64,000 nt of DNA from positions 5,808 through 69,807 of the forward strand of contig JAVBMW010000027.1 of assembly GCA_031551965.1 (NCBI GenBank). Direction: 5' to 3'. A model generated the notes under the pieces. That model ran no database searches, had not been told where the DNA came from, and saw only the letters and a list, made by a program, of their open reading frames with translations. Position numbers and translations under genes: made by a program. Positions 2,855 to 61,232 of the stretch are shown here, in pieces; the first letter of the stretch is position 1; each line of letters opens with the position of its first letter. Origin of the DNA: Holdemania sp. (GTDB lineage: Bacteria; Bacillota_I; Bacilli_A; Erysipelotrichales; Erysipelotrichaceae).

Positions 2855-3703
2855 ATGATGTCGATACAATGGTTTCCGGGTCACATGACAAAAGCAAAAC
2901 GTCAAATGATTGAAAATATTCAAAAAGTAGATATGGTAATTGAAATCAGAGATTGTCGCATTCCACTTTCAAGTACGAATCCGATGTTGGATGATATGAT
3001 CAAGACGAAGCCTAGACTGATACTTTTAAGTAAAAAAGATAAAGGTCAAGTTGAAGAAATAAAAAAATGGATCGAAGTATTAAATAATGAAAATACTCAA
3101 GCGATCGCAATGGATCTTTTAAAAGACCCTGTATTAAATAAAACAGTTGAAGCTTGTCAAAAAGTAATGCAACCGATGATTGATCGCCAAATACGCAGAG
3201 GAATCAAACCACGAGCGATCAGAGCAATGGTTGTAGGGATCCCCAATGTAGGAAAATCTACTTTTATTAATCAAATAGCGAAAAAAAAGGCTACAAAAAC
3301 ATCGGATAGACCCGGTGTGACAAAAGACCTTCAATGGGTGAAATGCAATGAAAAACTTGAACTACTAGATACACCTGGTGTTTTGTGGCCACGTTTTGAG
3401 GATCGTCAGGTTGCGCTTCATTTGGCAATCACTGGAGCAATTCGAGATAAAATATTACCTTTGGAAGATATTGTTGTCTACGCAATTGAAACATTATCAA
3501 CAGAAGTACCAGAATACATTACAAAGCGTTATGATATTGAAATTCAAGAAGATGCCTACAAAACAATTGAAGCCATTGCCAGAAATAAAAATTGGATCAA
3601 AACAGGAAATGAAATCGATTATGATCGAGCTTACAATATGATTTTAAATGAAATCAGAGATGATAAATTAGGTAATTTTACTTGGGAGAAAGTTCATGAT
3701 TAA
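2855..3703 (+). CDS. rbgA: Ribosome biogenesis GTPase A (YlqF/RbgA)
   Basis: Starts MSIQWFPGHMTKA. Circularly permuted GTPase motifs are present (LLSKKD, then GIPNVGKST, DTPG). GGAGGTG RBS. Confidence 0.9.
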   Translation: MMSIQWFPGHMTKAKRQMIENIQKVDMVIEIRDCRIPLSSTNPMLDDMIKTKPRLILLSKKDKGQVEEIKKWIEVLNNENTQAIAMDLLKDPVLNKTVEACQKVMQPMIDRQIRRGIKPRAIRAMVVGIPNVGKSTFINQIAKKKATKTSDRPGVTKDLQWVKCNEKLELLDTPGVLWPRFEDRQVALHLAITGAIRDKILPLEDIVVYAIETLSTEVPEYITKRYDIEIQEDAYKTIEAIARNKNWIKTGNEIDYDRAYNMILNEIRDDKLGNFTWEKVHD

Positions 3704-4316
3704 AGAACTTGAAAATACATATGAACACATTGCTTGGCAAATCGATCAAACCGTAATTGGTATCGATGAAGCTGGTAGAGGTCCGATTGCCGGGCCATTA
3801 GTTGTAGCGGGAGTCATATTACCAATTGGTTATGAAAATCCTGAAATTTATGACTCTAAGCAAACTTCACTTAAAAAAAGAGAAGAATTGTATAATGTCA
3901 TTATAGAAAATGCCTTATCTTATCAAATCGTAATTGTATCTGAAAAAGAAGTGGATGAATTAAATATTTATAGAGCAACTCAAAAGGCAATGCATGAAAT
4001 TGGAGAAAGTTTAGAAAGTACAGTAGTATTAACAGATGCGATGCCATTGCCTCATTGTAGTAAGGTCGTCCATGATATTATCAAAGGGGATCAAAAAAGT
4101 ACCTCAATAGCTGCAGCCAGTATTTTAGCTAAAGTGACTCGAGATCGTATTATGATCGAACTAGATAAACAATATCCAGAATATGGCTTTGCGAGACACA
4201 AAGGATATCCGACAAAAGAACATTTAGAAAATCTAAAGAAATTTGGTGTACTTGAAATCCATCGTAAAAGTTATGGACCAGTTCAAGATCAAATGCAAAT
4301 GCAGTTAGATATTTAG
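3696..4316 (+). CDS. rnhB: Ribonuclease HII
   Basis: GIDEAGRGPIAGPLVVA active-site motif and DSKQ; conserved position after rbgA, overlapping its end. Confidence 0.9.
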   Translation: MIKELENTYEHIAWQIDQTVIGIDEAGRGPIAGPLVVAGVILPIGYENPEIYDSKQTSLKKREELYNVIIENALSYQIVIVSEKEVDELNIYRATQKAMHEIGESLESTVVLTDAMPLPHCSKVVHDIIKGDQKSTSIAAASILAKVTRDRIMIELDKQYPEYGFARHKGYPTKEHLENLKKFGVLEIHRKSYGPVQDQMQMQLDI

Positions 4317-4395
4317 AGGTTTGAAATCTCTTTTTCCTTTATTTACCTAATCGAAGAATTAATTAAATGGGCATTCTAATATCAGGAGGCCTAAA

Positions 4396-4866
4396 ATGAA
4401 AAAAACATTACTTATAGGATTATTAGTATTATTAACTGGTTGTTCCACCAACAACAAGCCAAAACCAACACCAACACCTACAACTACTCCTTCAGAAACA
4501 CCTACGTCAACTCCAACAATAGTAAAAGAAGCGAAAGACGTTGTTGGAGAAGAAACACAGTTTGGTACACCGATTGTAAGTTTGAAAATGGTTGAAGGAA
4601 AAATTACTGAAGTGATGATCGATGAAATTACTTCAAATGGTAGTAAACGAGAACTAAAAGATGAATATAAATTATCTGATAAAGCGGTTGCACCATGGAT
4701 TACACAAGTAGATCGACTTCAGGCTTATATCGTTGAAAAAGGGACAGTCGATGAAATTGAGTTAAAAGATGGCAAAGTAACAAATGAAGATTTAAAAACA
4801 AGTGTTACAATCAATGTTGAAGAATATATCAAAACGATAAACAAAGCTATCAATGAAGCAAAATAA
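4396..4866 (+). CDS. Lipoprotein with Pro/Thr-rich linker, unknown function
   Basis: Lipobox LLTGCS after a signal peptide, then a KPKPTPTPTTTPSETPTSTPT linker. AGGAGG RBS. Confidence 0.7.
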   Translation: MKKTLLIGLLVLLTGCSTNNKPKPTPTPTTTPSETPTSTPTIVKEAKDVVGEETQFGTPIVSLKMVEGKITEVMIDEITSNGSKRELKDEYKLSDKAVAPWITQVDRLQAYIVEKGTVDEIELKDGKVTNEDLKTSVTINVEEYIKTINKAINEAK

Positions 4867-4950
4867 TGATTTAGGTCTCTTTTAATAGGGATCTTTTCTT
4901 TTGCCCAAAGAATTAAAATGTTAAACCATATTCTATTATGGGGTGATAAT

Positions 4951-5634
4951 ATGAAAGTCTATATTCACAATGAAGAAACAAATCGAATCGAACATTATAA
5001 TTTAGCACTTGATCAAGATATGCCATATACTTCGAATCGAATACTAACAGTGGGAATGTTTAAAGGCGGCACAAACACGGACATCATGTGGAGTTCAAAG
5101 AGTTTTTTAGAAGCATATAATAAAATTGCGGTTCAATTTGGTTGTCCTATTGAAATTGAACATGGTTTTAGTCGTGGATGGCAGGAAATACCCGATGAAA
5201 TTTATACACATAAATTGGGAACTGCATTAAACGTTGGCGGAAATTTAAGTATACCTTCATTAAAAAATCTTGTGAAGCTCTTAGAAGAATCCGGCTTATT
5301 TGATTATGTAAGTGAACTTGAACATTTTGCGAATTTTGTGCATTTTCATCAAATTCCTGAACCAGATGGAGCTTTAGTTCCCTTTCATCAAATTCAGTTA
5401 GGTGAAATTGGTCCTGCTGTATTTGTACTTCAAGATTCATTGTGGAAACTAGGTTATAATATTTGTGAGTTGAATGGAAATTTTGACGAAGCATTAAATC
5501 AAGAAGTAAAATTATTTCAATTGACCCAAGGTTTAATCCCAAATGGAATAGTAGATCGCTATTTTTGGGTAGCTTTATTTTTGCTGGTTCATCCAGAAGA
5601 TTATCGTCTTTTAGCAGACAATAGTTTTAATTAA
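4951..5634 (+). CDS. Peptidoglycan-binding-domain protein with N-terminal peptidase-M15-like region
   Basis: C-terminal PG_binding_1-like pattern (GPAVFVLQDSLWKLGY ... FDEALNQEVKLFQ ... GLIPNGIV). N-terminal PIEIEHGFSRGW ... THKLGTALNV resembles the M15A SGxR / SxHxxGxAxD pattern, with N in place of D. Confidence 0.55.
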   Translation: MKVYIHNEETNRIEHYNLALDQDMPYTSNRILTVGMFKGGTNTDIMWSSKSFLEAYNKIAVQFGCPIEIEHGFSRGWQEIPDEIYTHKLGTALNVGGNLSIPSLKNLVKLLEESGLFDYVSELEHFANFVHFHQIPEPDGALVPFHQIQLGEIGPAVFVLQDSLWKLGYNICELNGNFDEALNQEVKLFQLTQGLIPNGIVDRYFWVALFLLVHPEDYRLLADNSFN

Positions 5635-5675
5635 GTCAAGTGAAAAATCTTTCACTGAAAAAGGATGAAAATGAC

Positions 5676-5704
5676 TTGAAATAATTTTAGTAAGCGGTTA
5701 CAAT
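5676..5704 (+). promoter_or_regulatory. Sigma-A-type promoter (TTGAAA-17 nt-TACAAT)
   Basis: TTGAAA at 5676-5681, exact 17-nt spacer, TACAAT at 5699-5704, upstream of the leader ORF. Confidence 0.55.
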
Positions 5705-5730
5705 GATATCAAGAAACAGAGGTGAGTACC

Positions 5731-5805
5731 ATGAGCATCAAATTGCCTGAACTTGTTCAAGAAAACAATTTAGGGGTGCTTGTGCGACTTGTAAATAACT
5801 TTTAA
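5731..5805 (+). CDS. Putative 24-codon leader peptide (MSIKLPELVQENNLGVLVRLVNNF)
   Basis: ATG is preceded by a GAGGTGA RBS 5 nt upstream. The stop codon ends 1 nt before the 5' arm of an intrinsic terminator. The ORF is too short for the supplied ORF track. Confidence 0.45.
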   Translation: MSIKLPELVQENNLGVLVRLVNNF

Positions 5806-5833
5806 GGTGGGTGCGGTTTGACCTGCCTTTTTT
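5806..5833 (+). terminator. Intrinsic terminator in the 5' leader (candidate attenuator)
   Basis: ggtgggt / acctgcc 7-bp stem (two G-U pairs), 8-nt loop, followed by tttttt. It lies 32 nt upstream of the ankyrin gene start. Confidence 0.55.
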
Positions 5834-5865
5834 GTACCTCAGTTCAATAAAGGAGGAAAACTTAA

Positions 5866-6534
5866 ATGAATCAATTAGACAAAGAATTTTGGGATGCTGC
5901 CGCTGCGGGTGATTTCGCAAAGGTATGCTCAACAGTAGCACAAGGAGCAGATATCAATGTTGCTTCTGGTGATGGAAGAAATGCATTAATGCGTGCTGCA
6001 AAGCGTGGGTATGATGATATTGTGCGTTTCTTATTAGATAATGGCGCAAATGTTCGTGCAAGAGATTTTAATAATAAAACTGCATTGATGGGCGCTTCAA
6101 AAAAAGGAAATTTAAATATCGTTAGAATGTTGGTACATGCTGGTGCAGATGTGAATTCACATGACAATAATGGTCGTACATCTTTAATGCGTGCAGCATT
6201 CTTAGGTGAATTTGATGTGTGTCATTATTTAATTGGTAATGGTGTTAATGTTAATGCAAGAGATACAAAAGGTCGTACAGCTTTAATGGAAGCAGTATTA
6301 GCTTGTAAAGCAGACGTGATCACTTTACTTGTGGATGCTGATGCCGATGTCAATGCGCAGGATAATAATGGAAGTACTGCGTTGATGCGTGCTGCATATA
6401 GTGGAATCGTTGAGCTTGTAAACTATTTATTAGCTCATGGTGCAGATAAAGAAATCAAAGATTTTGATGGAAATAAGGCTGTTCATTATGTACGTACTGA
6501 ATGCTTAGATGACTTAAAGGACATCTTGAAGTGA
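5866..6534 (+). CDS. Ankyrin-repeat protein (about 6 repeats)
   Basis: Repeated 33-aa units of the form G-TALM-AA--G----V--LL--GA-VN--D. AAGGAGG RBS. The stop is 10 nt from the next start. Confidence 0.85.
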   Translation: MNQLDKEFWDAAAAGDFAKVCSTVAQGADINVASGDGRNALMRAAKRGYDDIVRFLLDNGANVRARDFNNKTALMGASKKGNLNIVRMLVHAGADVNSHDNNGRTSLMRAAFLGEFDVCHYLIGNGVNVNARDTKGRTALMEAVLACKADVITLLVDADADVNAQDNNGSTALMRAAYSGIVELVNYLLAHGADKEIKDFDGNKAVHYVRTECLDDLKDILK

Positions 6535-6544
6535 GGGCGGATAT

Positions 6545-8614
6545 ATGAAAGACTATTTAGCGAGCGAAGTAAGAAATATCGTTTTATTAGGACATAGTGG
6601 TACTGGAAAAAGTACGATTGTAGAAGGTGCTTTGTATTTTACAAAACAAGTTGATCGTATGGGTAAAACGGCAGATGGTAATAATACATCTGACTTTGAT
6701 CAAGAAGAAATCAAACGTGGATATTCTATCTATTCTTCTTTAGTACCAATTGAATGGCGTGACTGTAAAATCAACTTTATTGACACACCAGGTTACTTAG
6801 ATTACGAAGGTGAAATGAGATCAGGTGCAAGTGTTGCGGATAATGCCTTGATCGTAGTTAGTGGTAAAGATGGAATCGAATCTGGAACAGAGAAAGCTTG
6901 GAAACTTGCTTCTGCTAGAAAACTTCCAACTATTTTCTTTGTGAATAAAATGGATGATGAACATGCAAAATTCGCAAATATTTATGAAGACTTACGTAAC
7001 AAATTTGGTAAGAGTGTTATTGCATTCGAATTGCCGATCGTTGAAAATGAAAAAGTAGTCGGAAGTATCAATATTCTTCGTAAAAAAGCATGGTATTTCA
7101 ATGATCGTGATAACGCGAAAGAAGTACCTGCAAATTATGTTGATCAAGTTGAAGAATACTATGCTCAAATCACTGAAGCTATCGCTATGGGTGATGATGA
7201 ATTAATGGAAAAATTCTTCTCTGGTGAAAGTTTTGATGTGCATGAAATTGCAAGAGGGTTGCGTATTGGTGTTCGTTCAGGAGAAATTCGTCCAGTTTAT
7301 TGTGGTGCTGCAACTGAATGTATCGGTATTGAAAGATTACTTGATCTAATCACAGAATACTTCCCAAGTTATGCAGAAAAAGGTACTGTTGAAGCTGAAG
7401 ATACAAAAGGAAATAAAGTTGTACTTACTACAAATGAAAAAGAAGATTTTAGTGCTTTTGTTTATAAAACGATCGTCGATCCATTTGTAGGAAAAATTTC
7501 ATTCTTAAAGGTTATGACTGGTGTGTTTAGTGCTGATAGCCAAGTATACAATGTTCAAAAAGAAGAAGCAGAAAAAATCAATCAAGTATTTATTATGAAG
7601 GGTAAAGTTCAAATGGCTGCAGGTAAATTATTTACTGGAGACATTGGAGCTGTAATTAAACTTCAATATACTGAAACAAATGATACTTTAGCAACTAAGG
7701 CAAAACAAGTAAAATATCCAGCAGTTGAATATCCTCAACCATTACTTGGTGTTGCGATTTGGCCTAAGACAAAAGCCGATGAAGATAAAGTAAGCTTTGC
7801 ACTTGCGAAAATGTGTGATGAAGATAAATCGATTCGTGTTGTAAGAAATCCAGAAACGAAAGAAACTGTTCTTTATGGATTAGGTGATCAACAATTGGAT
7901 GTTATTATTAGTAAACTTAAATCAAAATATAAAGTTGAAATTGAAACAACTGAACCTAAAGTTCAATACCGTGAAACAATTCGTGGTACTGTGACTCAAG
8001 AAGGAAAACATAAAAAACAATCTGGTGGAGCAGGACAATATGGACACGTATTCGTTCGTTTTGAACCGGCTGATTGTGAAGATATGATTTTCGAAGAAGA
8101 AGTATTTGGAGGATCTGTACCTCGTCAATACTTCCCAGCAGTTGAAGCTGGACTTCGTGAATGTATGCTTCATGGTGTGCTTGCAGGATACAAAGTAGTT
8201 GGAGTTAAAGCGGTACTTACAGATGGTTCTTACCATGATGTTGACTCAAAAGAAATCGCGTTTAAAGCAGCTGCTCGTATTGCTTATAAAGAAGGATTAC
8301 CAAAAGCGAAACCAATCATTCTTGAACCGATCGCAAAAGTTGAAGTTTTTGTTCCAGAAGAATATACCGGAACGATCATTGGTGACTTCAACAAGCGTCG
8401 TGGAATGATCATGGGTATGGATATGGTTGATGATCTTCAAAAAGTTGAAGCTGAAGTACCATTATCTGAAATGCAAAAATATGCAACTGAGCTTCGTTCA
8501 ATGACTCAAGGTCGTGGACAATATAGTCTTCAATTTGATCGCTATGAACCAGCTCCTCAACCAATTGCTGATAAAGTAATTCGTGAACAAAAAATTGAAG
8601 TAAACGAAGAGTAA
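6545..8614 (+). CDS. Elongation factor G paralogue (EF-G-like translational GTPase), atypical switch II
   Basis: 689 aa. G1 GHSGTGKST, G3 DTPGYLDY (Tyr where EF-G has His), G4 NKMD. Domain IV/V-like regions are present (GGAGQYGHV, YHDVDS, EP). Confidence 0.85.
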   Translation: MKDYLASEVRNIVLLGHSGTGKSTIVEGALYFTKQVDRMGKTADGNNTSDFDQEEIKRGYSIYSSLVPIEWRDCKINFIDTPGYLDYEGEMRSGASVADNALIVVSGKDGIESGTEKAWKLASARKLPTIFFVNKMDDEHAKFANIYEDLRNKFGKSVIAFELPIVENEKVVGSINILRKKAWYFNDRDNAKEVPANYVDQVEEYYAQITEAIAMGDDELMEKFFSGESFDVHEIARGLRIGVRSGEIRPVYCGAATECIGIERLLDLITEYFPSYAEKGTVEAEDTKGNKVVLTTNEKEDFSAFVYKTIVDPFVGKISFLKVMTGVFSADSQVYNVQKEEAEKINQVFIMKGKVQMAAGKLFTGDIGAVIKLQYTETNDTLATKAKQVKYPAVEYPQPLLGVAIWPKTKADEDKVSFALAKMCDEDKSIRVVRNPETKETVLYGLGDQQLDVIISKLKSKYKVEIETTEPKVQYRETIRGTVTQEGKHKKQSGGAGQYGHVFVRFEPADCEDMIFEEEVFGGSVPRQYFPAVEAGLRECMLHGVLAGYKVVGVKAVLTDGSYHDVDSKEIAFKAAARIAYKEGLPKAKPIILEPIAKVEVFVPEEYTGTIIGDFNKRRGMIMGMDMVDDLQKVEAEVPLSEMQKYATELRSMTQGRGQYSLQFDRYEPAPQPIADKVIREQKIEVNEE

Positions 8615-8621
8615 ATCAATT

Positions 8622-8648
8622 AAAGACCGGTTTTAGTCCGGTCTTTTT
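8622..8648 (+). terminator. Intrinsic terminator after EF-G paralogue
   Basis: agaccgg / ccggtct stem flanked by aaa / tttt. Confidence 0.75.
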
Positions 8649-8671
8649 CAACTAATAAAGGAGGGATTGTT

Positions 8672-9505
8672 TTGAAGTCCTCACAAGAATTGCTGATTGA
8701 TCTTGCGAATTGGGTTGCAAAGGAGTCAAATCTTACTGCGCTTATCTTAAATGGGTCAAGAGCCAACCCAAACGCAAAGAAAGATCGTTTGCAGGATTTT
8801 GATGTAGTAGTCGTTTGTCAAAACATTGAGTATTATAAGAAAGATAAATCATGGATCGATCAGTTTGGAACTATAGCGATCATGCAAGAACCGGAAAATG
8901 GAAATCCAAATGCCTATACTTATTTAATTCAGTTTGAAGATAGAAATCGTATTGACTGTACCTTTCATAATCTCCACAGTGCAATAGTACAAATTAAAAA
9001 TGATCCATTAAGTTTAGTACTTGTGGATAAAGGAAATGATTTTTCGTTTGTACCAGAAGCAAGTGATAAGCTATATCATGTCAAAAAACCTACTCAAAAA
9101 GAGTTTGAAGAATGCTGTAATGAATTTTGGTGGGTCGCAACTTATGTTGCGAAAGGTCTTAGAAGACATGAACTACTTTATGCTATGGAGCATATCAATG
9201 CTTATGTTCGTCCAATGTACTTACAACTTCTTCGTTGGCGTGTGGGCTTTCAAACAAACTTTGAACTCAGCACTGGTAAACAAGATAAATATTTATTAGA
9301 TTATTTGGATGATGAAATGAAACAAAAACTACAAAATACTTTTTGTGTTTTAGAAGAAGAAGCGATGTGGAAAGCACTTGAAAATCTTTGTGATAGTTTT
9401 TCAAGTCTTGCGCAACAATTTGATTTTGAATACAAAATTTATGAAGAAAAAGGATCAAGATCAATAATAGAATTGATCAAAAATATGGATATAGAACTTG
9501 TATAA
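8672..9505 (+). CDS. Aminoglycoside 6-nucleotidyltransferase family protein (ANT(6)/AadK-like)
   Basis: LNGSRANPNAKKDRLQDFDVVVV, IDCTF, ECCNEFWWVATYVAKGLRRHELLYA and RWRVG match, as I recall them, the conserved blocks of ANT(6)-Ia/AadK. TTG start after an AGGAGGG RBS. Confidence 0.8.
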   Translation: MKSSQELLIDLANWVAKESNLTALILNGSRANPNAKKDRLQDFDVVVVCQNIEYYKKDKSWIDQFGTIAIMQEPENGNPNAYTYLIQFEDRNRIDCTFHNLHSAIVQIKNDPLSLVLVDKGNDFSFVPEASDKLYHVKKPTQKEFEECCNEFWWVATYVAKGLRRHELLYAMEHINAYVRPMYLQLLRWRVGFQTNFELSTGKQDKYLLDYLDDEMKQKLQNTFCVLEEEAMWKALENLCDSFSSLAQQFDFEYKIYEEKGSRSIIELIKNMDIELV

Positions 9506-9616: not shown

Positions 9617-10765
9617 TTAGTTCTTAATTTCTTGGAATGTTACTTCAAGATCGATGATTTTATTATCACGACGAACTTGAACATTGACTGTATCACCAAC
9701 TTTATGAGATTCGATGATCCCTACAAGAGTATCATAACTATCAATTGCGATATCATCCATCGATACGAAGCAATCTCCTGCTTGTAGTCCAGCACGTTGT
9801 GCAGCTGAGTTTTCAATGACTTCTGAAACGTAAACACCAAATTGATTTACGCCGTATTGTTGTGCTGAGAAAGCATTTGTGATATTCGCAACTTTAATAC
9901 CAAGGGAAGGTCTTCCCGTTACATAGCCATATTCAAGGAGTTGTTCGACGACTTCTTTTACATCATCGACAGGGATCGCAAAACCTAGTCCTTCAATGTT
10001 GGTACCAGATGATTTTGCGACAACCAAACCAATTAATTCACCTTGACTGTTGAATAATCCACCACCACTGTTTCCAGGATTGATTGCTGCATTGGTTTGA
10101 AGTAAGTTACGAGTTCTACCATCAAGCGTTATTTCGCGATCAAGTGCACTGAGAATACCATTTGTTACAGTTCCACCAAGTTGACCTAGTGGATTTCCTA
10201 CTGCGATGACTTCTTGACCAACAACTAGATTTGAACTGTTGCCAAGTATAGCTGGGATACAATCATTTTTTTCGATTTTAAGTAATGCGATATCTGTCTT
10301 ACTATCGGTTGCGATCAGTGTTGCATCGTAACTAGTACCATCATGCATTTTTACCTTGATTGTTTGCGCACCTTCGATGACATGATTGTTGGTGATAATG
10401 TAACCATTGGTTGAGTAAACAACACCTGATCCCGCACCTTGAGATGTATATTCTTGATTCCAGAAGCTTGTCGTTGTAGTTTCAGTGATGATCTCAACTA
10501 CACTGTTTTGTACTAAATCAGCTACTTGAATCACGTTGTTGCCTGTTTCAGTACTTGTCTGTATGACGTTGTTTGCGCTTTGGTAAACAATCGTTTGATT
10601 TGATGGTAAATAGTTAAGTGCTACAAAAGCAGAACTAAAACCTACCGTTCCAGATATCAAGGCACACATAAGGTAAGTTTTTAAGTTTGAGTTTTTCTTT
10701 GGTTTATTAGGTTCACGGAACAAATTTGTTTCCGGAGTAGGGTTTTCTACATTAATTTCTTCCAT
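9617..10765 (-). CDS. HtrA/DegP-family serine protease with PDZ domain
   Basis: N-terminal TM; catalytic triad context TNNHV, DIALLKI and GNSGGGLF; C-terminal PDZ-like GLQAGD. Confidence 0.9.
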   Translation of the reverse strand: MEEINVENPTPETNLFREPNKPKKNSNLKTYLMCALISGTVGFSSAFVALNYLPSNQTIVYQSANNVIQTSTETGNNVIQVADLVQNSVVEIITETTTTSFWNQEYTSQGAGSGVVYSTNGYIITNNHVIEGAQTIKVKMHDGTSYDATLIATDSKTDIALLKIEKNDCIPAILGNSSNLVVGQEVIAVGNPLGQLGGTVTNGILSALDREITLDGRTRNLLQTNAAINPGNSGGGLFNSQGELIGLVVAKSSGTNIEGLGFAIPVDDVKEVVEQLLEYGYVTGRPSLGIKVANITNAFSAQQYGVNQFGVYVSEVIENSAAQRAGLQAGDCFVSMDDIAIDSYDTLVGIIESHKVGDTVNVQVRRDNKIIDLEVTFQEIKN

Positions 10766-10838
10766 AAAATACCTTCTTTCTATTTATAACTTCATTATGG
10801 GGTGCTTTGTTGAATTTTATATGGTATTAATGTGAAGT

Positions 10839-12395
10839 TTAGCTGAACTTTTCTAAGATTGCCAAAGCACATCGAAAACCATCAAGTGCTGCAGACATAA
10901 TTCCTCCTGCATAGCCAGCCCCTTCACCACATGGATAAAGTCCTTCAATCGTTGTGCTGATGCATTTCTCATTTCGAAGAATTTGAATAGGACTTGAAGA
11001 TCGACTTTCCACTGCGGTCATTAGTCCATATTTAAAACCTGGCATTTTTTTGTCAAAGGCAAGAAGTGCTTCTTCGAGAGCCTCATTAATAAAAGGATCA
11101 AACAAATCATGAAGGTCGCACATAGTATTACCAAGCAAATAACTAGTAGAAAAATCAAAAGGACCTTTATTAATTTTCAAATAATCATAAGCCCACTCTG
11201 CAGGAGCTTTATAACTGTTGTGTGCTAATAAAAATGCTTTTTTTTCAAGAGATTGAATATAATCGAGGCCGGCAAACAAACCCGGTTTTAAGTCACTTGT
11301 TTTTACTTGAACTAGAATTGCACTGTTTGCGTTATCTAAATTTCGTTTTGATTCGCTCATTCCATTGATTACTAGTTGACCATTACTGCTTGCAGCGGCG
11401 ACAACACTCCCTCCAGGGCACATACAAAATGTATATACACCTCTGTCTTTAGATGTTGTGTGGGTTAAACGGTATTCCGCGTTTTTTAAAGCGGGATGAC
11501 CGGCAAATTGTTTGTACTGGCGTTCATTGACCCATTTTTGAGGATGTTCGATCCTGACTCCAACCGCAAAGTCTTTGGCTTTCATTTCAACGTTATTCTG
11601 ATCAAGCATCATGATCGTATCCGTTGCACTATGACCAATGGCAAAGATGATATGTTTACTATCGAAACGTTGATTGTTTGCGATAACACCAACGATTTGA
11701 TTGTTTTCGATGATGCATTGATCAACCTGATGTTCAAAGTAAAAGTTTGCCCCCATGGATTCAATTTTTTTACGAATGTTGATGATGATGTTTCTTAAGA
11801 CATCAGTTCCGATATGAGGATGCTGCATGATCAATATTTCGGGATCAGCTCCTGCTTCAACTAATATTTCTAAGATAGTTTGCGTATTGGGATCTTTTAA
11901 ACGACAAGTTAATTTACCGTCTGAGAACGTTCCTGCACCACCTTCTCCATATTGTACATTGCTTTTGGGATCAAGGATGCCCGTTTGCCAAAAAAATTCA
12001 ATATCCTTTACACGTTGTTCTACTTGTTTTCCTCTTTCAAGAATAATAGGTTTGCATCCTGCTTCGGCTAATGCATAAGCCGCAAATAAACCAGCAGGAC
12101 CACATCCCACAATGATAGGACGATCTTTAGGATCACTACAGCTAAAGTTTATTCTTTTTGTTTTTTCTGATTTTGTGATATCACGATTGTGCTTTGCCAA
12201 AAGTTTCTTTTCTAATGGTGTCTCAACTAAAGCAGTTATTTTTAAACACAATTTTTCACGGGCATCGATTGATTTACGAATGATCGTATATTCTAAAATG
12301 TCATTTTCCTGAATATGACATTTTTTCGCAATATAAGGTTTTAGTAGGGTTAAATCAGTGTCGATAGGACATTCAATTTGATTGATTTGAATCAT
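10839..12395 (-). CDS. FAD-dependent oxidoreductase (COG2509-like uncharacterised dehydrogenase)
   Basis: Rossmann motif IIVGCGPAGLFAAYALAEAG and C-terminal GEGAGYAGGI. ATG at 12395 follows GGTGA; the upstream TTG start overlaps a TATAAT-like box. Confidence 0.75.
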   Translation of the reverse strand: MIQINQIECPIDTDLTLLKPYIAKKCHIQENDILEYTIIRKSIDAREKLCLKITALVETPLEKKLLAKHNRDITKSEKTKRINFSCSDPKDRPIIVGCGPAGLFAAYALAEAGCKPIILERGKQVEQRVKDIEFFWQTGILDPKSNVQYGEGGAGTFSDGKLTCRLKDPNTQTILEILVEAGADPEILIMQHPHIGTDVLRNIIINIRKKIESMGANFYFEHQVDQCIIENNQIVGVIANNQRFDSKHIIFAIGHSATDTIMMLDQNNVEMKAKDFAVGVRIEHPQKWVNERQYKQFAGHPALKNAEYRLTHTTSKDRGVYTFCMCPGGSVVAAASSNGQLVINGMSESKRNLDNANSAILVQVKTSDLKPGLFAGLDYIQSLEKKAFLLAHNSYKAPAEWAYDYLKINKGPFDFSTSYLLGNTMCDLHDLFDPFINEALEEALLAFDKKMPGFKYGLMTAVESRSSSPIQILRNEKCISTTIEGLYPCGEGAGYAGGIMSAALDGFRCALAILEKFS

Positions 12396-12446
12396 AATTT
12401 TATCACCATTTCTATTATACAACTTTTAAATAAAAAAATTTAAAAA

Positions 12447-37241: not shown

Positions 37242-37329
37242 GAGAAGTTGGCCGAGCGGTTTAAGGCACCATCTTGGAAAGGTGGCGAAGTGAAAGCTTC
37301 CGTGGGTTCGAATCCCATGCTTCTCGCCA
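37242..37329 (+). tRNA. tRNA-Ser (anticodon GGA), CCA encoded
   Basis: Hand-folded. Acceptor is gagaagt/gcttctc; anticodon arm is ccatc-ttGGAaa-ggtgg; the variable arm is long; T arm is gtggg-ttcgaat-cccat; discriminator G plus CCA. Confidence 0.85.
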
Positions 37330-60550: not shown

Positions 60551-60880
60551 ATGGAAAATAGATGCAATTTAGATGTACAAACGATCTTAGATACTGAATT
60601 CCATGTGGATTTTAAAGGTTATTCTTCAATTGAAGTAGATAAATTCTTGGATATGGTGATTGAAGATTATCAAATCTATGATCAAAAGATTGCGGACATG
60701 AAAGAACAGTTCTTAATGCAGGAAAGATCAATTGCTTCATTGAAAGCTAAGATTATTGAACTTGAAGGAAAAGCAAAGGCATTAGAAGATGTTGAATCTG
60801 TGAATCCATCTCAATTAGATCTTTTAAAAAGAATTTCAAAATTGGAACAAGAAGTTTATAAGAATAAACAAGAATTTTAA
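60551..60880 (+). CDS. gpsB: Cell-cycle protein GpsB (DivIVA-domain)
   Basis: ILDTEFHVDFKGYSSIEVDKFLDMVIEDY DivIVA N-terminal motif plus a coiled coil. It is adjacent to rnpB, as in B. subtilis. Confidence 0.85.
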   Translation: MENRCNLDVQTILDTEFHVDFKGYSSIEVDKFLDMVIEDYQIYDQKIADMKEQFLMQERSIASLKAKIIELEGKAKALEDVESVNPSQLDLLKRISKLEQEVYKNKQEF

Positions 60881-61232
60881 CATTCGGGTAACCGCTGACA
60901 GCAATGTTAGAGGAAAGTCCATGCTCGCACAGTCTGTGATGACTGTAGTGTTTGTGCTAGTTTAATCAATAAGGCTAGGCAGATGAAAATCTGACGGCTG
61001 ATGAACTCCTAAGGCGTAAGCTATGGACGACATCTATAAAAGTGCCACAGTGACGGAGTTCTATGGGAAACCATAGAAGTGGAACGGGTAAACCCCGCAA
61101 GCGAGAAACCCAAATTTGGTAGGGGAATTTTCCAGATCGAACTGAAGAAATGGAAAGACAAAGTAATTTGTAGATAAATGGTTACCACCCTGTTTACAGG
61201 GGACAGAACATGGCTTACAGAGTGTGAAATAA
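60875..61232 (+). ncRNA. rnpB: RNase P RNA, Bacillus (type B) class
   Basis: Blocks shared with B. subtilis rnpB as I recall it: ttcgggtaa-cgctg, agaggaaagtccatgctcgcac, aagtgccacagtgacg, gtggaacgggtaaacccc, gcgagaaacccaaatttggtaggggaa and acagaacatggcttacag. The ends can pair (P1). Confidence 0.9.

Follow-up and report, generated by a model that had tools for sequence, protein, structure and literature searches.

The locus analysed here lies within a window of 64,000 nucleotides (nt) from Holdemania sp. (GenBank assembly GCA_031551965.1, contig JAVBMW010000027.1, positions 5,808 to 69,807) and comprises a gene predicted to encode a small ankyrin-repeat (ANK) protein, termed ank in the following, and directly downstream a gene predicted to encode a paralogue of elongation factor G (EF-G). 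A first-pass annotation of this DNA had described the two genes as an operon spanning 5866-8614. While its gene content was retained, its start had to be revised: the transcription unit appears to begin further upstream since a promoter-like site, a short open reading frame (ORF) and a terminator precede ank. The features of this unit are given below in positions of the window.

5676-5704, forward strand: promoter-like site (TTGAAA, 17-nt spacer, TACAAT), a consensus match only (10/12)
5718-5726, forward strand: Shine-Dalgarno (SD) sequence of the leader ORF, AGAGGTGAG (AGAGGTG or GGAG at other loci)
5731-5805, forward strand: leader ORF with 24 codons, MSIKLPELVQENNLGVLVRLVNNF; the hairpin begins within its stop codon (5803-5805)
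5804-5835, forward strand: putative attenuator resembling an intrinsic terminator, with a 9-bp stem (5804-5812 paired with 5821-5829), an 8-nt loop and a T-run (-12.7 kcal/mol, z = -2.6)
5850-5856, forward strand: SD sequence of ank, AAGGAGG, 9 nt 5' of the ATG
5866-6534, forward strand: ank, ORF of 222 codons for an ankyrin-repeat protein (ORF calling, Pfam)
6533-6537, forward strand: SD-like sequence of the EF-G paralogue gene, GAGGG, overlapping the stop codon of ank
6545-8614, forward strand: gene of an EFG II-type EF-G paralogue of 689 residues with the domains G/G', II, III, IV and V (Pfam, NCBIfam)
8622-8650, forward strand: operon terminator, a GC-rich hairpin of 9 bp (8622-8646) followed by TTTTT (-13.1 kcal/mol, z = -4.8)

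The basic layout reported in the first-pass annotation was confirmed, namely the two ORFs of 222 and 689 codons separated by 10 nt (6535-6544), the strong ribosome binding site belonging to ank itself, and the terminator behind the second gene. Likewise, a terminator scan of the window found no terminator-like site between the two genes. From the short spacer we infer that their translation may be coupled.

According to the Pfam search the downstream gene product contains all five EF-G domains (GTP_EFTU, EF-G_D2, EFG_III, EFG_IV and EFG_C), and the G motifs GHSGTGKS, DTPG and NKMD were identified in its sequence. Among the NCBIfam models NF009381 (PRK12740 series) reached 876 bits at a cut-off of 583, and the equivalog of the canonical EF-G, TIGR00484, was narrowly missed (653.1 versus 659.4). 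An alignment to solved EF-G structures revealed the absence of both hallmarks of the canonical EF-G (EFG I, fusA), DTPGH and RGITI. The catalytic histidine of switch II is replaced by a tyrosine (DTPGY), which aligns with the histidine in EF-G of T. thermophilus and in that of M. pneumoniae, and the G2/switch I motif reads RGYSI. The combination of DTPGY or DTPGF with a serine-type G2 motif was shared by all 80 relatives (28 from Erysipelotrichales, 52 from Clostridia). A relaxed G2 motif with serine in place of threonine characterises the EFG II subfamily, its Clostridia subgroup carrying RxxSI, and genomes with a member of this subfamily always encode a further EF-G (EFG I) as well (Margus et al. 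2011). The 64-kb window and the collected loci contain no second EF-G-like gene. Furthermore, the gene is located outside the str operon (rpsL-rpsG-fusA-tuf) and has neighbours of other kinds. The motifs and profile scores thus fit a putative EFG II-type ("EF-G2") paralogue, referred to as EFG II below, although its sequence is more similar to the canonical EF-G of M. pneumoniae (544 bits) than to the structures of T. thermophilus and Bacteroides EF-G2 (413-436 bits).

An analogy to the ribosomal protection proteins Tet(M) and Tet(O), which had been drawn in the first-pass annotation, did not hold in view of these EFG II motifs and of the model scores. The tetracycline-protection models remained far below their cut-offs (NF012153, tet_protect, 320 versus 775; NF033148, 229 versus 1100; NF012155, 197 versus 1420), the models for Tet(M), Tet(Q) and Otr scored lower than the 320 bits of tet_protect, and the loops of domain IV are EF-G-like (HKKQSGGAGQYGHV and DGSYHDVDSKE). 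The EFG II members characterised so far are non-essential factors of stress and starvation and not resistance proteins. EF-G2 of M. smegmatis, in which the same histidine is a tyrosine, is considered a stress-specific factor, and the exchange H88Y in EF-G1 of this organism nearly abolishes the ribosome-dependent GTPase activity. In Bacteroides, EF-G2 supports slow translocation, and EF-G2 (fusA2) of B. thetaiotaomicron is induced on carbon limitation and needed for gut colonisation.

The product of ank (Ank) consists almost entirely of ankyrin repeats. The Pfam families Ank_2, Ank, Ank_4 and Ank_5 cover nearly the whole protein (E-values of 1e-37 to 1e-43), with scores of 146 bits for Ank_2 and 126 bits for Ank, the latter with five stretches. 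A repeat register assigned by hand comprises an N-terminal cap, five full repeats of 33 residues and a C-terminal cap, and all repeats carry TALM in place of the consensus TPLH. The N-terminus lacks the character of a signal peptide, the overall isoelectric point is 5.7, and the protein is taken as cytoplasmic. Only ANK families matched in Pfam and NCBIfam; a FusB/FusC-like domain was not detected, and the resemblance to FusB-type EF-G-binding proteins brought up in the first-pass annotation was consequently abandoned.

The positions through which ANK proteins contact their targets (2, 3, 5, 13, 14 and 33 of each repeat) turned out to be about as conserved in Ank as the framework (0.76 versus 0.79). 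Invariant or nearly so are the contact residues R38, K46, R47, K71, K79, K80, R104, R109, R137, R175 and Y178. The contact positions on the concave face are thus mostly occupied by arginine or lysine, although the protein as a whole is mildly acidic. Such a conserved basic contact face is what would be expected for a protein with a single conserved acidic target.

A connection between the two gene products is supported by the conservation of their genes as a pair. Scanning a single genome of each species for EFG II gave 80 loci. The 27 species loci from Erysipelotrichales without exception encode a full-length orthologue of Ank directly ahead of EFG II, and the SD sequence is contained in the 9-34 nt between the two genes. 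These loci are labelled Holdemania, Solobacterium, Bulleidia, Lactimicrobium, Thomasclavelia and Erysipelothrix, and their EFG II proteins are 54-77% identical. The Ank orthologues of the Erysipelotrichales loci have 222-225 residues throughout and are 52-82% identical. In the reverse direction, a metagenome scan starting from Ank yielded 80 orthologues with 61-74% identity; EFG II follows at a distance of 8-83 nt in 77 out of 78 cases, and two more orthologues run off their contigs. The sole orthologue without EFG II in the approximately 780 nt downstream (69% identical over residues 1-213) is located on a metagenome contig of 1.6 kb (L149), which might be explained by a broken assembly or by true loss of EFG II. 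The same arrangement was detected in the cultured Anaerorhabdus furcosa and in a lineage from a biogas reactor, both with independent gene calls, as well as on further short contigs reached through Ank matches. Cultured strains carrying the module are Anaerorhabdus furcosa, Erysipelothrix inopinata DSM 15511 and Lactimicrobium massiliense. The expectation that the pairing would be kept outside the source genome was thus borne out by the neighbourhood survey.

Clustering of the three genes on each side of EFG II showed ank to be the only conserved neighbour, while the positions -2 and +1 vary by genus. This strict adjacency amid changing neighbours lends good support to a functional partnership as suggested in the first-pass annotation, where Ank had been proposed as a dedicated partner. 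Moreover, the pairwise divergence of Ank and EFG II is closely correlated (r = 0.94, rate ratio 0.97, 69 unique pairs), i.e. a repeat protein of 222 residues evolves as slowly as a translational GTPase. Hence, ank and EFG II form an obligately linked and co-diverging pair that is restricted to Erysipelotrichales. No relative of Ank was found near the EFG II genes of the Clostridia-type (44-52% identical) at any of the Clostridia loci. A comparison of the Ank-linked with the Ank-free EFG II proteins yielded 25 distinguishing positions, which are spread over the domains G, G', II and IV and are missing from III and V. A496, K550, V554, K569 and R578 are among them and lie at the tip of domain IV. 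Their location is suggestive of an interface, though not decisive.

Two further observations were made in the course of this survey. The ank-EFG II pair and its leader on a contig labelled Tannerellaceae (Bacteroidota; L028) hardly differ from those on a contig of Erysipelotrichaceae (L026); the former contig is probably mis-binned. A different conserved partner of EFG II in Clostridia was also considered, but no family is kept there beyond small subclades. One such family, unannotated and of 175-272 residues, is encoded directly upstream of EFG II at the Clostridia loci L032, L037, L047, L049, L052 and L053 with gaps of 2-169 nt, and is not an ANK protein.

The leader region constitutes the second conserved component of the locus. 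The hairpin ends at 5829, i.e. 36 nt before the ATG of ank, and the end of the T-run is 30 nt away from it. As a promoter would not fit behind the hairpin, transcription of ank and EFG II has to pass through the terminator. With its promoter-like site, a short ORF bearing an SD sequence, an intrinsic terminator and too little space for a second promoter, the region is, judged by its layout, a leader-peptide attenuator.

Hairpin and T-run were detected in 81 of 85 distinct upstream regions (about 95%), represented by 50 different stems, and a leader ORF of approximately 22-56 codons with an SD sequence was present in 75 of the 85. An arrangement of the form TTGAAn...GGTTACAAT is also located upstream of the leader ORF at orthologous loci, and in A. 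furcosa the leader ORF has been annotated as a gene. The position of its stop codon is fixed to a high degree: among the strictly scored cases it begins exactly 1 nt 5' of the hairpin in 39 of 53, and most of the remaining stop codons are located within the 5' arm or loop. Immediately 5' of the hairpin a further T-run is conserved. In an alignment of 40 diverse hairpins, compensatory changes were observed in eight of the nine base pairs of the stem; none of 500 shuffles reached the observed covariation score, and shifting the register reduced the pairing from 90% to 35-63%. Furthermore, the pattern occurs 65 times in the 2.7 Mb of collected sequence (both strands counted), in all cases upstream of ank. 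Rfam searches revealed no known riboswitch, T-box or leader family, either in the whole window at the gathering threshold or in the region 5500-6000 and at locus L085 with E-values up to 10. The attenuator element is thus conserved, covarying and exclusive to the ank-EFG II operon, and it matches no Rfam family.

When 64 leaders were folded without the 3' arm, no consistent upstream partner of the 5' arm that could act as an antiterminator was found; with the 3' arm included the terminator was part of the minimum-energy fold in 63 of them. The lack of a competing antiterminator helix points to an attenuator of the ribosome-occlusion subtype, and ribosome occlusion would also be the simplest mechanism. 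A local similarity of an upstream GGTGGA to the 5' arm, noticed at some loci, was dropped as a candidate since it is not conserved in the window. The possibility that the attenuator had been inherited together with EFG II was likewise discarded: about 50 upstream regions from Clostridia lack the combination of leader ORF and terminator, apart from one weak case attributed to chance.

The leader peptides end with phenylalanine in 35 of 64 cases. In a large subclade (L007, L010, L017, L085, L091, L099, L143, L150 and others) F-G-G is found at positions -12 to -10 from the stop codon. Because these residues are nearly always encoded by TTC GGC GGG G, a constraint on the peptide and a constraint on the RNA are inseparable here. 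At the loci L085-L088 the attenuator is situated approximately 280 nt upstream of ank, and the insert of about 250 nt between them (3250-3500 in L085) contains several GC-rich inverted repeats and has no match in Rfam. On the short contig L082 the region upstream of ank (1-290) is GC-rich, unlike the others, and contains neither leader nor hairpin; this contig may be chimeric.

The operon is flanked by housekeeping-type genes (2855-5634 and 9617-12422), and no mobile-element genes adjoin it. Reading the translations by eye we labelled the flanking products as an RbgA-like GTPase, an RNase HII-like protein, a lipoprotein, an HtrA-like protease and a FAD-dependent protein; a PG_binding_1 protein was assigned by a Pfam match. 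At 8672-9505 an ORF with a TTG start codon encodes a protein of 277 residues with a streptomycin/aminoglycoside 6-adenylyltransferase domain (288 bits in Pfam), which remains below the NCBIfam cut-off for ANT(6) (230 versus 420). This ANT(6)-like gene was rejected as a part of the module as it is absent at all other loci and is located behind the operon terminator. The window also contains a class B bacterial RNase P RNA (60880-61222, 307 bits), which is typical of low-GC Firmicutes, and one tRNA gene (37242-37326).

Considering these results, we regard it as reasonably probable that the locus represents a lineage-specific module controlled by the state of translation, in which Ank serves as the dedicated partner of EFG II. 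The module would consist of the attenuator formed by leader ORF and terminator, ank and the EFG II gene, combined in one transcription unit that is specific to Erysipelotrichales. Ank and EFG II would be made in a fixed proportion because their genes are separated by a spacer of only 9-34 nt, and Ank is proposed to bind EFG II via its basic concave face, acting as an adaptor, regulator or stabiliser. EFG II itself presumably is a ribosome-binding factor whose GTPase activity is low or absent because the catalytic histidine is a tyrosine. By analogy with EF-G2 of Bacteroides and Mycobacterium it may be used beside the canonical EF-G in particular states of translation or energy supply. As for the regulation, a ribosome located at or near the stop codon of the leader ORF would mask the 5' arm of the terminator and permit read-through, while the terminator would form if this ribosome lags behind or is absent. 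Since a ribosome at the stop codon would block the terminator, expression of the operon would report the speed of translation relative to that of transcription, or an arrest at translation termination. The binding of Ank to EFG II, its biochemical role and the direction of regulation are what we infer from sequence data and comparative genomics.

Several points weigh against this interpretation. The signal of the attenuator and its direction are not readable from the sequence. In Firmicutes of the B. subtilis type the RNA polymerase usually outruns the ribosomes, so that pure occlusion would be inefficient unless the polymerase pauses. The closest analogue, the leader-peptide model of tet(M), has been questioned experimentally. 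A low GTPase activity is not assured either, given that EF-G-2 of T. thermophilus, also a member of EFG II, hydrolyses GTP. Concerning the proposed complex, the correlation of r = 0.94 is inflated because Ank and EFG II share their common descent, the approximately 70 unique pairs are too few for a coupling analysis, and the subgroup-specific positions of EFG II form no single obvious patch.

It is also conceivable that Ank and EFG II act in the same process without forming a complex. The target of Ank would then be another acidic partner such as rRNA, the canonical EF-G or the L7/L12 stalk, and Ank might for instance hold back EF-G1 or mark ribosomes for takeover by EFG II. The strongly basic and invariant surface of Ank would fit RNA as well as an acidic protein, the distinguishing positions of EFG II do not single out one clear patch, and a shared operon proves a shared function only. 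However, the correlated divergence at equal rate and the strict linkage at 9-34 nt would rather be expected of subunits or of cognate partners. Moreover, EFG II of Clostridia works without Ank, which ties Ank to the changes in the EFG II clade of Erysipelotrichales. We therefore consider the absence of a complex rather unlikely.

The function of the Clostridia proteins without Ank also suggests that Ank is an add-on connected to alterations of the Erysipelotrichales EFG II, among them A496, K550 and K569 at the tip of domain IV. Taken one step further, the proposed partnership might be such that Ank is an obligate second subunit whose invariant groove, lined with arginine and lysine, acts on the G or G' domain of the histidine-less EFG II as a GTPase-activating protein, a guanine nucleotide dissociation inhibitor or a mimic of the ribosomal stalk, thereby setting the entry to or exit from the ribosome, with the operon under a new ribosome-occlusion attenuator sensing either the coupling of transcription to translation or an arrest at termination. 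In this extended form the proposal is distinctly doubtful.

The first-pass annotation had furthermore suggested a stress- or antibiotic-responsive module. A response to the state of translation is indirectly supported by the attenuator, but a role in antibiotic protection is not supported, given the tet_protect score (320 versus 775) and the lack of a FusB-like domain. Such a protection system would consist of an EF-G-like ribosomal protection protein and a FusB-like helper, induced via the leader by drug-stalled ribosomes. Attenuators composed of a leader ORF and a terminator are indeed typical of resistance genes against ribosome-directed drugs, including tet(M), and in this genome the ANT(6)-like gene is located directly downstream. 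However, the remaining models for Tet(M), Tet(Q) and Otr score lower still, the domain IV loops resemble those of EF-G, and Ank contains ANK domains and nothing related to FusB. The module is vertically conserved across the order in housekeeping contexts without adjoining mobile-element genes, the ANT(6)-like neighbour is missing from all other loci and separated by a terminator, and the characterised EFG II proteins are starvation and stress factors. An antibiotic-protection system therefore seems very unlikely. At a single locus (L165) a gene for a resolvase-type recombinase was found approximately 3.8 kb downstream of the module.

That the adjacency is meaningless, with an unrelated ank sharing the promoter by chance, is highly improbable: ANK proteins are generic scaffolds, but in more than 100 independent loci with up to about 50% protein divergence the pair is kept at 9-34 nt while the other neighbours change, and Ank essentially never occurs without EFG II, the one exception being the contig of 1.6 kb. 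An involvement in anti-phage defence was considered and rejected, as PADLOC yielded generic matches to the ANK region (PDC-M72A, Ankyrin, MzaA) and weak matches to the GTPase, and no system fits both proteins.

In the literature searched no paper was found on the pairing of an ankyrin protein with an EF-G paralogue, also when combined with the terms Erysipelotrichaceae or operon, in agreement with the first-pass annotation, which had known of no such pairing. Paralogues of the EFG II type are known, as are attenuators with a leader peptide; a dedicated ANK partner of an EF-G paralogue was not found in the searched literature, nor this attenuator in Rfam, and relative to these sources both appear to be new. 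The EFG II paralogues have had no settled role since their recognition, and the only three that were studied gave differing answers. A partnership of Ank with EFG II, as favoured here, would bear on this question in two ways: as a candidate interactor, Ank may reveal a regulated surface of EFG II, and the condition that induces the cis-acting leader would indicate when EFG II is required. If Ank proved to be an obligate subunit, a bacterial EF-G paralogue with a dedicated protein cofactor would become known for the first time. The attenuator, with its stop codon fixed at the foot of the terminator and no antiterminator, would offer a clean natural test of the coupling between ribosome and RNA polymerase. 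Erysipelotrichales, a lineage close to Mycoplasma, are common in gut and rumen and include the pathogen genus Erysipelothrix. The presence of the module in cultured strains makes it experimentally tractable.

With the described EFG II proteins (EF-G-2 of T. thermophilus, EF-G2 of M. smegmatis, EF-G2/FusA2 of B. thetaiotaomicron) the paralogue of the window shares the five domains, the serine in G2, the exchange of histidine for tyrosine and the location outside the str operon. In contrast to these proteins, the clade of the window is closer to the canonical EF-G and has EF-G-like domain IV loops. None of the described proteins has a dedicated partner or a leader-peptide attenuator as found in the operon of the window, and fusA2 of Bacteroides is controlled by a transcription factor.

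The tet(M) gene of Tn916 with its Ptet/orf12 leader resembles the operon in that a short leader ORF together with an intrinsic terminator precedes a gene of the EF-G family. In the model proposed for tet(M), a ribosome keeping pace with the RNA polymerase prevents termination. Unlike Tet(M), the paralogue of the window is not a ribosomal protection protein; furthermore, its leader ORF stops directly at the hairpin, and a search for an alternative RNA fold found none. The conserved T-run directly 5' of the hairpin is reminiscent of the UTP-sensitive pausing at pyrBI. In this E. coli operon a ribosome on the leader ORF blocks the terminator hairpin, and a U-rich tract before the hairpin lets the polymerase pause. 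However, the leader ORF of pyrBI runs through the terminator, whereas that of the ank-EFG II operon in most cases stops at the hairpin base. By analogy, a sensing of UTP by the ank-EFG II leader might be imagined, which is only an idea.

FusB and FusC are comparable to Ank insofar as a small protein is proposed to bind a factor of the EF-G family and to alter how this factor behaves on the ribosome. As a solenoid made up of ANK repeats only, Ank has no relation to them in sequence or domains. FusB is encoded by a mobile resistance gene, and its target is the canonical EF-G. We know of no precedent for a small ANK partner that involves a translational GTPase. Small ANK proteins serving one client are represented by AnkB of P. 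aeruginosa, which serves KatB and is encoded in the katB-ankB operon, and by Yar1 of yeast, which serves uS3. Although their clients and compartments are different, Ank resembles both of them as an ANK-only protein of about 200 residues with presumably a single client, and AnkB also shares a two-gene operon with its client.

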